The notes under the pieces are model-generated. The model saw only the letters and a program-made list of their open reading frames with translations. It was not told the origin of the DNA and did not search any database. A stretch of DNA of 52,312 bases from a virus. Taxonomy: Duplodnaviria; Heunggongvirae; Uroviricota; Caudoviricetes. Position 1 is the stretch's first letter. Every line of letters begins with the position of its first letter. This document shows, in pieces, positions 15,351 to 46,033 of this stretch. The position numbers and the translations under genes were made by a program. The DNA lies in the IMG/VR virus record IMGVR_UViG_3300044878_000087, positions 258,432-310,743 of that record. The stretch is one strand, 5' to 3'.

Positions 15351-15935
15351 TTAACCGCGATACTTGGCTACTTTAGATTCGAGCAGCGCTAAGATTTCAG
15401 CATTGGTCAAAGGTGTCTTCTTATCGCGAGCATAGAAGATACCAACGTTTGCTGCAGCTTGAGCTGGGAACATTGCTGCCCCGATAGCCTTACGATCAGC
15501 CAACAGGAATTTCTTAGCTGTACCAACACCAAAGAAGTGTGCAGCGTACAGTTCAGTATCTGTTGGTTCACGACCCAGTCCACTCTTAAGAATGCGGGCG
15601 TTGTCTTTCAGCAGCTCTGCACCCATTAGGCCATTGGCTCGTGGATCTAAACGCAGTCCACGTTGAGCATCATCGATAAGACCATATTTGGCATTAGTCA
15701 ACTTCAGGATATCATCCCAAGTTTTGTTCAAGTGTTGAAACCAACCTGTTGCACTTGATGTAGATGCTTTCACCAGGTAATCAAACCCAGATTCGATTGC
15801 AGCGAATGTTGCCAAGATAGCAGCAGACATCCCTGTGATCTTACCAATAGCTTCTAGTGTTGGCATAGCCGCAGCACGTGATTTATTCGCTACGGGTAGC
15901 GGAATGGAATCAAGTATAGCGTTCTTAGTAGCCAT
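15351..15935 (-). CDS. endolysin, lytic transglycosylase (phiKZ gp144 catalytic domain-like)
   Basis: FAAIESGF, SSATGWFQ, LYAAHFFG SLT motifs. Start chosen at the ATG after the GAGGT RBS. Confidence 0.85.
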   Translation of the reverse strand: MATKNAILDSIPLPVANKSRAAAMPTLEAIGKITGMSAAILATFAAIESGFDYLVKASTSSATGWFQHLNKTWDDILKLTNAKYGLIDDAQRGLRLDPRANGLMGAELLKDNARILKSGLGREPTDTELYAAHFFGVGTAKKFLLADRKAIGAAMFPAQAAANVGIFYARDKKTPLTNAEILALLESKVAKYRG

Positions 15936-15945
15936 GTTATTTACC

Positions 15946-16485
15946 TCAGTCGTGTTCCATTTCCCGGATGTCGCCATCTTCCATCAGACGGTTATCACCA
16001 TCTTCCAGATAACGGGAGTATGGGTTAGCTTCCACGATATCGACAATAACATCAGTCTCGCCAAAGTAAGCGTAGCTACCGGTCATTGCTTTTAAGCGAT
16101 AAACGAAGCTGGCTTCTTTGACACTGATGACTACCGTCGAGAAAGAAATGTCATCTGGACCGAAAGTCATTTTACGACTACGGTTGATTTCTCGTGCGAT
16201 GCTGGCGGGCGTAGGTAACCCTACAATTGTGATTCGTGTGCTCGTGCCCAGTGCCTTTGGATGTGCCAAGTCTAGACGACGATATACAAAGAATTCTTTT
16301 AGCCCAGTCAGGCGATTAGTCATCTCAATAAAGGTACGGCCAGGGATAGCAGGCAGTGGGGCAAAGAACATGTCTTCAAAGCTCACTTGATCAGGTTTGT
16401 AGTTCCTTTTCAAGTCGATGTTCACCTGCTTCACGAGCGCGTCGCGAGAAGGCATGTCATACGGGAAACGATCTGTTGTGATCAT
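15946..16485 (-). CDS. virion structural/adaptor protein with C-terminal RxxEDG repeat tail
   Basis: FFVYRRLDL motif resembles the structural paralogs at 33825 and 34711. Ends ANPYSRYLEDGDNRLMEDGDIREMEHD. Confidence 0.7.
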   Translation of the reverse strand: MITTDRFPYDMPSRDALVKQVNIDLKRNYKPDQVSFEDMFFAPLPAIPGRTFIEMTNRLTGLKEFFVYRRLDLAHPKALGTSTRITIVGLPTPASIAREINRSRKMTFGPDDISFSTVVISVKEASFVYRLKAMTGSYAYFGETDVIVDIVEANPYSRYLEDGDNRLMEDGDIREMEHD

Positions 16486-33824: not shown

Positions 33825-34703
33825 ATGTATATCACACAAGACTACCTGAGGGTAGGATCATGGCAAGCTGTCATCGACATGATCAACGACAAATACAACT
33901 TCCAGCTCCAACCAGGAATTGTGAAGTTAAAGGAAATGAAATCACTGGGTCCCAAGCGGACTCAGATTGAGATCATTCCTAATCGGTCCAGTAACCCTGG
34001 CAACTTAATGCCGGCTATTACAGAGACTGTATTCACTTACGATCGATTGAACTGTACTGAATTCTTTCGTAACACCGTTGCTGTTAATATCAGTGGGCTA
34101 AAGCTACCAATCACCACGTTTGATATCCTCAAGCAGATCGGTGATCGCAATCAGATCGTATTTGAAACAGATGACTTTGTGCACCAAACCTTCGATCATT
34201 ATAATGCTCCAGCCGAACCGGATTTCATTATCCAGGCTGACTCGCATTCCCTGCGATTCGTAGGACACTTGAAAGTTCGATTGGTTAACACCACAAAGTT
34301 TAACCTGTCCTCTATTACCGATGTGATACTGGAGTTTCCTGAAGTAACGCAGAAGCATAACCCAGCCATTAAGTGTGGTGACTTTGTGTTCGGTCGTTAT
34401 GACTTTACCAATTGGCGGGAACTGTTGAAGGATACGCCTACGGGTTTGTATCACAATCCTGGATTAATTGCTAAGGCTATTAATGCATGTACGGGTATCC
34501 GCATGTCGATAGGGCCACAACCTTACACAGAGAGCCTGGTGCACACTTTGGTAGATGATGAGCCACATTGTAAGGTTCTGTATCACGGAGCTCCTACGTC
34601 ACTGTGGACAGCCAGACAGGATTGTAATCGTGTACTGGTAATAGAACTCAATCCAGCATACTCCACTGGCATGGATGGTTACATCCGTTTGCATTACGAT
34701 TGA
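33825..34703 (+). CDS. virion structural protein (gp127-like)
   Basis: VFTYDRLN motif. Cotranscribed with the gp128-like gene. Confidence 0.65.
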   Translation: MYITQDYLRVGSWQAVIDMINDKYNFQLQPGIVKLKEMKSLGPKRTQIEIIPNRSSNPGNLMPAITETVFTYDRLNCTEFFRNTVAVNISGLKLPITTFDILKQIGDRNQIVFETDDFVHQTFDHYNAPAEPDFIIQADSHSLRFVGHLKVRLVNTTKFNLSSITDVILEFPEVTQKHNPAIKCGDFVFGRYDFTNWRELLKDTPTGLYHNPGLIAKAINACTGIRMSIGPQPYTESLVHTLVDDEPHCKVLYHGAPTSLWTARQDCNRVLVIELNPAYSTGMDGYIRLHYD

Positions 34704-34710
34704 GGTTGGT

Positions 34711-35139
34711 ATGTACGTACTAGACACGAAACAAACATTGTTGAATAAGTTCAACAAAGCTACTGGTAAGAAAGTTCTACTCGAAGATGTGGACTTTGTT
34801 AATGCCGGGGTATGGTTACAAAACGCATGCAATGCTAAAGTAACGATTCGAGCTAAGGCTAGTTCCAATGACTTCACTGGTGAGGCTACCCTGTTTTACA
34901 ATCGTTACCGCATTGATCAGTTCCTGCCAGATGTGGTATTGAATGGTAAGCCTGGTGACTACGCTACTACGGAAGATGTATTGCGTTACCTACGTGTAAC
35001 CTATCAGATCCCCGCTTACGATACGGACTTCTATACTGGTGCGATCGATCCTACCGCTACTGAAGTTGTATTGACTCCGCGGATTGATTCTGTTGCGTGG
35101 TTACCACCACACCCAATCACGCTAAAGTTCCCCGTTTAA
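34711..35139 (+). CDS. virion structural protein (gp126-like)
   Basis: LFYNRYRI motif related to the upstream gene and to 15946-16485. GAGGT RBS before ATG 34711. Confidence 0.65.
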   Translation: MYVLDTKQTLLNKFNKATGKKVLLEDVDFVNAGVWLQNACNAKVTIRAKASSNDFTGEATLFYNRYRIDQFLPDVVLNGKPGDYATTEDVLRYLRVTYQIPAYDTDFYTGAIDPTATEVVLTPRIDSVAWLPPHPITLKFPV

Positions 35140-43693: not shown

Positions 43694-43725
43694 CATAAAG
43701 CCTACCCCGAAGGGTAGGCCGTATG
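43694..43725. terminator. MCP operon terminator (CATA-hairpin-TATG family)
   Basis: CATA-aa-GCCTACCC-CGAA-GGGTAGGC-cg-TATG. Starts 1 nt after the second in-frame stop, not after the annotated MCP stop. Confidence 0.8.
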
Positions 43726-43726
43726 T

Positions 43727-43813
43727 TTAACCTTCTAGGTACCGCTGGGTAGTACCGTCCTCAAAGTACCGGATAGTACCGTCTTCATATCGACGGACGT
43801 TGCCCGGATTCCT
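43727..43813 (-). other. in-frame 28-codon readthrough extension of the major capsid protein (RNPGNVRRYEDGTIRYFEDGTTQRYLEG*)
   Basis: Hand translation past the TGA at 43816-43814. Frame stays open to TAA at 43729-43727. Repeat motif matches the C-terminus of 15946-16485. Confidence 0.7.
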
Positions 43814-46033
43814 TCAAGGTGCTTTAACAGCATCGATCAGTGGTTTGTTCCACTGCGATTTGCCCATCACTTCTTCCAGACCAGTGATGGTCAGGTTGAT
43901 TGCGAATGGGATGTTGTTAACGTGCAGGTTGAATGGAACAGCTGCGATCTCACGAGTCACTTGCTGGCCACCACGAGTGATAGGTAGGTCAGCGATCACG
44001 GTCGATACGTAGAAGAACTGACCGAAGGACAGGATGTCGTTTTCGGTTGGGTTCTTACGAGTAGGAACGATTACCAGTTTACCATCGAACAGTTCGTTGT
44101 TGGTAGTTACCAGGTCGTACTCGAGGATTGCGCCCAGGGTACGGTCGTCGCCTTGAGTCATCAGGTAGTTACCGATTTCTTTGTCGGTAGCGAAGATGAA
44201 CATTGGCTTCTCGTCTTGGTTGCCCGAGATCACACGGAACGCAGCTTCGATGTTCGATTCACGGTAGGCCGGGAACAGAATACCTTTAGCGAAGTTCAGG
44301 ATGGTCGAGCAAACGTCTTGCCAGCGATCTTGCGACTTCAGAGTGTCGATGTGATCTGGCAGGTGCAGCGAACCTTCACGGTAGGTAGGACGCATCATGA
44401 TGCTCAGTGCGCCTTCAACAGCGCCGAACTTCGGACGGTCGTAACCATTACCAACTACTTCTTTCAGCTGAGCCAGGTAGTTCAACAGACGTTTAACAGC
44501 GTTGTTGCTGTTACGGATGTTGGTGTTGACAGTCAGTGCCTTCACGACGTCGCCTGGGCCTTGCTCATCCATGGTGGACATTGGCAGGGTGACAGGAGCG
44601 TGCATCGGGATTGGGTGACGGAACTGGATAGCACGAGTTTGCAACAGGTGACCACGCTGACGGCGGTTAGTGTTGGTGAACTTCAGGTCCAGGTCGTAGC
44701 CAACTACTTCGAGTTCGCCGATAGCTGCAACCAAAGCTGCACCATCGCCAGTCTCGATCGAGATCAGCTTGCGGTCTTCGTCGACGATACGGTCGATTTC
44801 GATACCAGTTGCGCCGTAACGAGCATCACCACGGGAGGTCGAAACACTGCCGTTGAACGATACGCTGATACGAGCGGTCCACTTACGGTTGATCAGTTCC
44901 TGCACGTTAGCAGAAATCGAACCGTCGATTGCTTTGGTGTCTTCGCCAACAACCAGGTCTTCAGAGATGAAGTCTAGTTTAGCCAGACGGGTGTCGCCGA
45001 TCAGACCAGGCTGGAATACAGCGGTAGGCAGACGGTCAACAACGAAGCGGATTACTTTGCCGTCGAACTTGACGTACAGAGCTTTCAGGCGGCCACTTGG
45101 GTCGATGGTATCCGAAATGTCCAGCATGCCTTTGTTGATCAGCAGGTTGGCGTTCGAGTTACCCATCAGGTCGATCTTCACGTTTGGCTTCAGTGGGCCA
45201 GTAGTGATGGTCATGTTCTGTTCGTTGGTCACTGTGTGGTGTGGAACCAGAGCATTGTCAGTGAAGAACTTCAGGTTGGTACCATCTGGATCAACAGCAG
45301 GGATCAGGTCGGTGCAGTTGTCGTCCAGGATCGATGGATCACGGTAGGCTTCTACCATGTTCACTTCTTCGTTAGCCAGCTTCTGGCCCGAAACAGCGTG
45401 GTAGACGTCTTTCATTACAGCGATGTACGGAAGAACCTGAACCACACCACCTTCAACTGGGTTGATAACGGTAGTTGGGTACAGACGTTCAGCGAACTCG
45501 TCCTGACGGGAAGCTTCGAGGTTGTAACCTACAGTTACGACGCGGAAGTCCCGTTGGGATTTTTCGTTGTAGTTTTCCAGGCCCAGGTGGTCTTGGAATA
45601 CTTGCAGGGAGCCAGCAGGACCGTTGAACTCGTGACGTACGTTGTGTACGTGCTCTTCGTTCGAAACTACTTCTTTCGATACTGCACGCAGAGCTTTCTT
45701 GTAAGCGTCTGGGTCAGCACAGGCGATAGCAGCAACGGTAGCAGCGCGCTGTTGGTTTTCGGTGATGTACGACTTGCCGTCAGTGAAGTGCTCGAAGCCG
45801 TATTTCTTCATGGCGGTGCCAAGGTCGGAGTACATCTGACCAGCGGTAGTACGGCCAGCTTCAGTAATGTCACCGAAGTTTTCTTGGCTGATGAATTCTA
45901 CCAGGCCTTTACCTTTAGCCAGGACGGAGTCGCCGTAGTTCTGTTCGGCAGACAGTGCACCGAGGAAGTCTTCCATCGAGAAGCGGGTGTATTGCTTCTG
46001 TGCGTTATGTTTAAACAGTGAATCGAGATTCAT
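43814..46033 (-). CDS. major capsid protein (phiKZ gp120-like)
   Basis: 739 aa, strongly biased codon usage, N-terminal x-S/G-x-E cleavage-type sites (FSME, ISQE, LGLE), ASRQDEFAERLYPT. Next to gp119-like and DnaB. Confidence 0.9.
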   Translation of the reverse strand: MNLDSLFKHNAQKQYTRFSMEDFLGALSAEQNYGDSVLAKGKGLVEFISQENFGDITEAGRTTAGQMYSDLGTAMKKYGFEHFTDGKSYITENQQRAATVAAIACADPDAYKKALRAVSKEVVSNEEHVHNVRHEFNGPAGSLQVFQDHLGLENYNEKSQRDFRVVTVGYNLEASRQDEFAERLYPTTVINPVEGGVVQVLPYIAVMKDVYHAVSGQKLANEEVNMVEAYRDPSILDDNCTDLIPAVDPDGTNLKFFTDNALVPHHTVTNEQNMTITTGPLKPNVKIDLMGNSNANLLINKGMLDISDTIDPSGRLKALYVKFDGKVIRFVVDRLPTAVFQPGLIGDTRLAKLDFISEDLVVGEDTKAIDGSISANVQELINRKWTARISVSFNGSVSTSRGDARYGATGIEIDRIVDEDRKLISIETGDGAALVAAIGELEVVGYDLDLKFTNTNRRQRGHLLQTRAIQFRHPIPMHAPVTLPMSTMDEQGPGDVVKALTVNTNIRNSNNAVKRLLNYLAQLKEVVGNGYDRPKFGAVEGALSIMMRPTYREGSLHLPDHIDTLKSQDRWQDVCSTILNFAKGILFPAYRESNIEAAFRVISGNQDEKPMFIFATDKEIGNYLMTQGDDRTLGAILEYDLVTTNNELFDGKLVIVPTRKNPTENDILSFGQFFYVSTVIADLPITRGGQQVTREIAAVPFNLHVNNIPFAINLTITGLEEVMGKSQWNKPLIDAVKAP

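Follow-up and report, generated by a model that had tools for sequence, protein, structure and literature searches.

In this study we analysed the 3′ end of the major capsid protein gene carried by a 52,312-nucleotide stretch of DNA (the window), which was drawn from the 310,743-bp genome of a phiKZ-like giant Pseudomonas phage (IMG/VR record IMGVR_UViG_3300044878_000087), with phages D6, Psa21 and RVTF4 as its nearest relatives. The gene is a homologue of phiKZ gp120 and ends in TGA, and behind this stop its own reading frame continues for 28 further sense codons. Comparison with related phages suggests that these codons are probably translated through readthrough of the UGA, which would give a minor, C-terminally extended form of the capsid protein. 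To judge from its pattern of substitutions, the extension is evolving as a protein. It carries a repeated motif that recurs at the C-terminal tail of a short virion protein with the DUF7941 fold, the homologue of phiKZ gp143, and for the idea that the tag serves to dock DUF7941 proteins we see, on sequence evidence, roughly even odds.

Identification of the capsid gene is straightforward. The Pfam family PF25620 (PhiKZ_MCP) matches the 739-aa open reading frame (ORF) at positions 43814-46033 with E 1.8e-227, covering positions 1-634 of the 635-position profile, and the C-terminal 243 residues of the protein match the gp120 chain of the phiKZ structure 8Y6V with E 1.4e-120. The ORF, located on the minus strand, closes with the codons AAA GCA CCT TGA. 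The 28 sense codons which follow translate as RNPGNVRRYEDGTIRYFEDGTTQRYLEG; ATG, GTG and TTG are all absent from them. A GC-rich hairpin (43719-43700), followed by TTTATG, starts 7 nt past the second stop, TAA, and in relatives lacking the extension the distance from the capsid TAA to the terminator is a few tens of bases. A first-pass annotation, made from the letters of the window alone, had already described the capsid ending, the 28 in-frame codons closed by TAA with the terminator behind this second stop, a synonymous GAA/GAG difference between the repeats and a frame without a start of its own, and had read the whole as a readthrough extension; all these statements about the sequence turned out to be correct. 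An open frame in a single genome is nevertheless not significant, because 27 of the 96 TGA-ended ORFs of this genome are likewise followed by at least 25 open in-frame codons (17 of them by at least 28). One genome proves little, and so the case for the extension rests on comparison with relatives.

Capsid gene 3′ ends were collected from the annotated phages D6, Psa21, RVTF4, phiKZ, phiPA3, Noxifer, PS119XW and 201phi2-1, and two scans of IMG/VR added further relatives, which gave in total 24 distinct extension sequences belonging to several genera. The first stop is TGA in every one of these 24 genomes. The base after it is A in 18, G in five, C in one and T in none. In bacteria UGA terminates translation comparatively weakly when A, G or C comes next, and the missing T at the fourth position is compatible with a weak stop. 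The second stop is variable in the same genomes (TAA in 15, TGA in five and TAG in four), and genome-wide stop use amounts to TAA 193, TGA 96 and TAG 28 in 317 ORFs. Downstream of the first stop the capsid frame is open in 24/24, with stops present in frame +1 in 22/24 and in frame +2 in 20/24. The extensions are 24-30 codons long (24, 26, 27, 28 or 30) and differ by whole codons, and despite insertions and deletions on both sides of the stop the capsid frame is kept in all 24. The aligned extensions share no conserved ATG, GTG or TTG in frame. Because a start codon is missing and the frame linkage to the capsid gene is constant, readthrough of the UGA appears to be the simplest route to the extended product. 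Both the conserved UGA and the conserved motif-bearing open frame that the first-pass annotation had proposed to look for in relatives were thus found, and its reservation that the TGA could be a sequencing error is ruled out by the presence of this codon in 24 distinct genomes.

The identity of the stop codon follows the extension. Across 35 ingroup rows there is not a single exception to the rule that the extension goes with TGA and its absence with TAA. Ingroup relatives without the extension came from the second IMG/VR scan (L043, L044/L055, L045, L047, L049/L050, L051 and L054) and all end the capsid gene in TAA, and in such TAA relatives the terminator is reached after 1-8 random codons. 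On the capsid tree L054, which has TAA and a deleted extension, is nested among Noxifer-like phages possessing TGA and the extension, and L047 (TAA) lies beside L048 (TGA and extension). In L046 (IMGVR_UViG_3300043122_000192), sister to TAA lineages, the capsid TGA-A is followed by an in-frame ORF of 203 codons (L046:1466-2080), which carries a Big_2 immunoglobulin-like (Ig-like) domain (Pfam E 4.1e-9). An ATG stands there two codons past the TGA, and for this ORF readthrough or coupled re-initiation is possible.

Selection at the protein level is visible in the alignment itself. The peptide consists of a variable Gly/Pro-rich linker and, behind it, three R-x-h-E-[DN]-G units. Invariant Arg columns are coded by CGT/CGA/AGG and by CGG/CGT/AGA, invariant Gly columns make use of all four GGN codons, and Glu is coded by both GAA and GAG. 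The ratio of nonsynonymous to synonymous substitution rates (dN/dS), computed on the codon alignment, equals 0.39 in frame 0, whereas the two alternative frames give 0.80 and 1.10; the final 30 capsid codons, at 0.34, come close to the value for the extension. When dN/dS was also computed on a set of 16 sequences, it was below one only in frame 0. A value below one in the capsid frame was the last of the sequence-level predictions made for relatives in the first-pass annotation, and as all of them hold, its interpretation is supported.

The tag has one counterpart elsewhere in the genome. In a six-frame scan of all 310,743 bp the double motif was found only at the capsid extension and at the C-terminus of the gp143 homologue (P0001), in both cases 8 residues from the stop. 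Likeness of the extension to the C-terminus of this 179-aa protein had been remarked on at the outset, and BLASTP confirms it (8/14, E 0.007). Searched with a degenerate DNA pattern, phiKZ, phiPA3 and PS119XW each gave the same two loci and no others, the control giving zero matches, and for phiKZ the alignment of the extension with the gp143 tail shows 13/20 identities (E 2e-7). Within the tail of P0001 the residues R158, R166 and R174, spaced 8 apart, are invariant in 48 homologues. The Pfam DUF7941 match of P0001 is weak (E 0.028); its AlphaFold2 model (predicted local distance difference test score, pLDDT, 85.5) has as best fold match a chain of the phiKZ outer peripheral baseplate, 9xqd (E 2.6e-7). 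For DUF7941 proteins, phiKZ gp143 included, head-to-tail oligomers have been proposed, with the disordered tail of one protomer placed on the N-terminal domain of the next (bioRxiv 10.64898/2026.04.21.720040); in the same work the docking of the tail is an AlphaFold-based proposal, filaments of Goslar gp22 were seen by electron microscopy, and DUF7941 copies were estimated at more than about 2,500 per virion. Our predicted complex of two copies of the gp143 homologue scored 0.02 against a mark of 0.42, a result which speaks neither for nor against binding.

A parallel was found in the distant phage Goslar (MK327938.1), whose capsid protein is about 30% identical to that of the window over the C-terminal part. 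Its capsid gene also ends in TGA-A followed by 28 in-frame codons (L020:1691-1777), of unrelated sequence. The only other match of this extension in the Goslar genome is the extreme C-terminus of gp23 (E 0.005); the match finishes 4 residues short of the stop codon and includes the shared core DNVADGF. Goslar gp23 (L064:1027-1566) is an abundant DUF7941 protein (E 7.3e-20) and its gene adjoins a peptidoglycan-hydrolase gene, as gp143 adjoins the endolysin. No close relatives of Goslar were found in the phage collection in which conservation of its extension could be checked. As far as sequence comparison goes, the same arrangement occurs in two distant lineages: a capsid extension gated by UGA is matched with the tail of the phage's own short DUF7941 protein, and the sequences involved differ between the lineages. 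Coordinates of the features in the window are collected in Table 1.

Table 1 Position of the capsid gene, its proposed extension and the DUF7941 genes in the window
Feature	Position	Strand	Characteristics and basis
Major capsid protein gene, homologue of phiKZ gp120	43817..46033	minus	739 sense codons; Pfam PF25620 PhiKZ_MCP
First stop, TGA followed by A; proposed leaky stop	43814..43816	minus	Sequence; TGA kept in relatives
In-frame extension of 28 codons	43730..43813	minus	Gly/Pro-rich linker and three units of the R-x-h-E-[DN]-G type
Second stop, TAA; end of the extended protein	43727..43729	minus	Sequence
Hairpin resembling an intrinsic terminator, with conserved TTTATG flank	43694..43719	minus	8-bp stem, TTCG loop
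Homologue of phiKZ gp143 (P0001, 179 aa); DUF7941-fold virion protein, reported lysis regulator	15946..16485	minus	Homology, model
Tail at the C-terminus of P0001 (residues 158-179); carries the three-unit motif of the extension	15949..16014	minus	Motif and BLASTP
DUF7941 paralogue P0052 (292 aa); candidate tag receptor	33825..34703	plus	PF25613, E 6.7e-21
DUF7941 paralogue P0053 (154-aa ORF); candidate tag receptor	34675..35139	plus	PF25613, E 6.5e-11

The terminator hairpin of the capsid gene is retained in relatives, in which the stems differ and show compensating changes. Compared with the matching place in L001-L056, it retains a TTCG-type loop and has a conserved flank, GCTTTATG(C/T)CGT. 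A AGATCTATATTAC-like motif is conserved before the next gene in many relatives and is missing from the window. At the other locus, the ORF listed for an endolysin-like gene (15351-15977, minus strand, with a weak SLT domain match) has its start within the gene of the gp143 homologue, 32 nt before the end of the latter, and thus shares sequence with the final codons of the tail motif, though its true start may lie further downstream. In one extension-less relative (L060 and L062; IMGVR_UViG_3300011906_000001) two gp143-like genes lie about 3 kb from each other; one encodes a typical tail with Arg and the other a degenerate tail devoid of Arg residues. In phiKZ the gene of gp143 was non-essential in a transposon study; transposon counts for phiKZ, which are given per gene, contain nothing for the stretch behind orf120.

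The following course of events would account for these observations. The ribosome would read through the capsid UGA, most simply with the help of near-cognate tRNA-Trp, and the product would be a minor, longer capsid subunit made beside the normal one. Its extension would consist of a flexible Gly/Pro-rich linker and a tag of about 22 residues with three R-x-h-E-D-G units; the tag may imitate the tail at the C-terminus of the gp143 homologue, the phage's short DUF7941 protein, and in this way recruit DUF7941 proteins. In the phiKZ capsid a helix bundle made of six C-terminal arms lies at the centre of the hexamer, and the arms of pentamers contact an external protein, gp244 (PMC11297242). As capsid C-termini meet at the capsomer centre, the tag would be displayed there, probably outward, and crowding of six tails at one pore may be the reason to keep it rare. 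Readthrough and its level, assembly of the extended subunit, the position of the tag and its partner are what we infer from the comparisons given above. The docking idea gains support because the tag copies a DUF7941 tail and because Goslar pairs its extension with the tail of gp23; this second pairing, having a different sequence, is the best evidence that the tag may work by imitating a DUF7941 tail. We also considered a further step, unlikely in our opinion, in which tags at capsomer centres would start head-to-tail DUF7941 filaments, and accumulating capsids would titrate the gp143-type holin regulator, tying the timing of lysis to head assembly. If true, start sites of filaments at capsomer centres would explain the presence of thousands of DUF7941 copies per virion.

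Several observations weigh against production of a readthrough-extended subunit or against its role in docking. The deposited phiKZ capsid chain (8Y6V gp120) has 747 residues and is without the extension, and neither of the phiKZ capsid structural papers (one of them PMC11297242) reports one. The association between TGA and extension goes back to just 3-4 independent changes, a number with which a phylogenetically corrected (sign) test cannot become significant. No conserved RNA structure that would stimulate readthrough was found in the aligned extensions, so that readthrough may not rise above the basal level; nor does the final capsid residue give a specific signal, since Pro, Ala or Gly is also found there in TAA relatives without the extension. 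Concerning the partner, the likeness between the Goslar extension and gp23 is short (18 residues, 56% identity), and the published role of phiKZ gp143 is that of a holin-binding lysis regulator and not fibre formation (PMC12894885). Moreover, gp143-type tails occur also in phages whose capsid gene has no extension. Co-loss of the tail and the capsid tag was rejected for this reason, as the tail can do without the tag and neither element requires the other, and it follows that the tail would be the older element and the capsid tag an add-on. Our literature search, with ribosome profiling included, found no published report of phiKZ capsid readthrough.

Three other explanations of the 28 codons were considered. 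Selection at the protein level shows translation, not how it is started, and the codons could be expressed as a separate small peptide, from a non-canonical start or by re-initiation after the capsid stop. Purine-rich, Shine-Dalgarno-like bases are present after the stop in many relatives, and the ATG behind the TGA of L046 fits such a route as well. We find it quite improbable, however, given the lack of any conserved in-frame ATG, GTG or TTG and the capsid frame held in 24/24 despite indels on either side of the stop. The first stop, always TGA, becomes TAA on loss of the extension, which a separate gene would not need, and a free 28-residue mimic of the tail would compete with docking instead of providing an anchor. 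Alternatively, the UGA could be decoded efficiently late in infection, through an alteration of termination by the phage or decoding capacity that it provides, so that most or all capsid subunits would be tagged. Some large phages do recode stop codons in late genes, and the phage encodes its own tRNA-Trp(CCA), one of eight tRNA genes located outside the window (G000:C1:126937-134316). This we regard as very unlikely, since none of the eight tRNAs has a UCA anticodon, the tRNA-Trp has an ordinary U11:G24 pair, other genes are intact under the standard code with 96/317 ORFs ending in TGA, and the phiKZ capsid protein was modelled to residue 747, with a six-helix bundle and with no further ordered density reported. 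Recoding by a suppressor tRNA was rejected on account of the same ordinary tRNA-Trp and missing UCA anticodon, and reassignment of TGA as a sense codon on account of the ORFs being intact under code 11 and of the share of them that TGA ends. The tRNA-Trp(CCA) with its U11:G24 pair is a near-cognate reader of UGA, not a suppressor form.

It would also be conceivable that these codons are untranslated and belong to the 3′ end of the capsid mRNA as an RNA stability, terminator-accessory or regulatory element, with the open frame as a side effect of conservation at the nucleotide level. The stretch sits between the stop and the terminator, its alignment at the DNA level reaches as far as phiKZ, and RNA of the window can fold with the stop codon in a stem. 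Against this, substitutions are mostly synonymous, with CGN and AGR replacing each other at Arg positions and all four codons occurring at Gly positions, dN/dS is below one in frame 0 only, and an ordinary gene also encodes the same peptide at its end. The consensus fold of the aligned extensions is weak (-7.9 kcal/mol) with almost no covariation (covariation term -0.3), and the single-sequence fold of the window RNA is no better than that of shuffles (z -1.4). The scan of Rfam 15 gave no family over the extension; its only match, on the terminator hairpin, was sub-threshold, with 21.8 bits where the gathering score is 58.7. As nothing convincing came from the alignment fold, the single-sequence fold or the Rfam scan, the RNA-element explanation was rejected, and we hold it to be scarcely credible. 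Readthrough of the UGA into a minor tagged subunit therefore stays our preferred interpretation.

If this interpretation is true, the model jumbo phage phiKZ and its relatives use readthrough to make their most abundant structural protein in two forms, one of them so far unannotated, and a single stop codon offers a genetic handle on a surface-displayed tag. The tag would be an anchoring point for the abundant, as yet unplaced DUF7941 proteins of the fibre cloud of chimalliviruses, and the place of its attachment a natural site for capsid display engineering. To our knowledge, capsid readthrough is established for small RNA phages and plant viruses and not for tailed DNA phages, which are known for frameshifting. 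The comparison with the Qbeta A1 protein and the T7 10B protein, drawn already in the first-pass annotation, stands as an analogy and does not extend to homology.

One of the closest analogues is Qbeta (Qubevirus), whose coat gene ends in UGA and whose occasional readthrough yields the minor capsid form A1, with an extension lacking a start of its own. Common to both systems is a coat gene with a conserved leaky-type stop, followed by a start-less zero-frame extension that appears to evolve as a protein. Qbeta is, however, a small single-stranded RNA phage without homology to the phage studied here, and its extension domain of about 200 residues is needed for infectivity, whereas here we deal with a 310-kb tailed double-stranded DNA phage with a T=27-type HK97-fold capsid, and with a 28-residue tag, of presumed translation, copying the tail of another virion protein. 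In T7 (gp10A/10B), Listeria phages PSA and A118 and Lactobacillus phage A2, a minor C-terminally extended capsid protein is produced by programmed frameshifting. They resemble the present case in being tailed double-stranded DNA phages with recoding at the end of the capsid gene, but they use -1 or +1 frameshifts at slippery sites; the extension described here is zero-frame and lies behind a stop, which makes readthrough, unlike in the frameshifting phages, the simplest route.

Among eukaryotic viruses, the coat protein-readthrough domain (CP-RTD) of luteoviruses and poleroviruses is a minor capsid subunit that is made by readthrough and displays a surface interaction module. The likeness lies in the route, stop-codon readthrough adding a module to a minor subunit. 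CP-RTD is found in plant viruses with RNA genomes, where the stop is UAG, the added domain is large and RNA signals act over a long range; the present phage shares none of these features. Ig-like domains are known to be appended to phage structural genes as accessory display domains, mostly through frameshifts. The Big_2 ORF of L046 resembles them, and there the ATG after the stop permits separate initiation. Finally, the tag resembles the DUF7941 (PF25613) filament proteins (Goslar gp22/gp23; phiKZ gp126, gp127 and gp143) in that it repeats the tail sequence of the phage's own short DUF7941 protein, and it differs from them in that the capsid extension contains the tail only and no DUF7941 globular domain.

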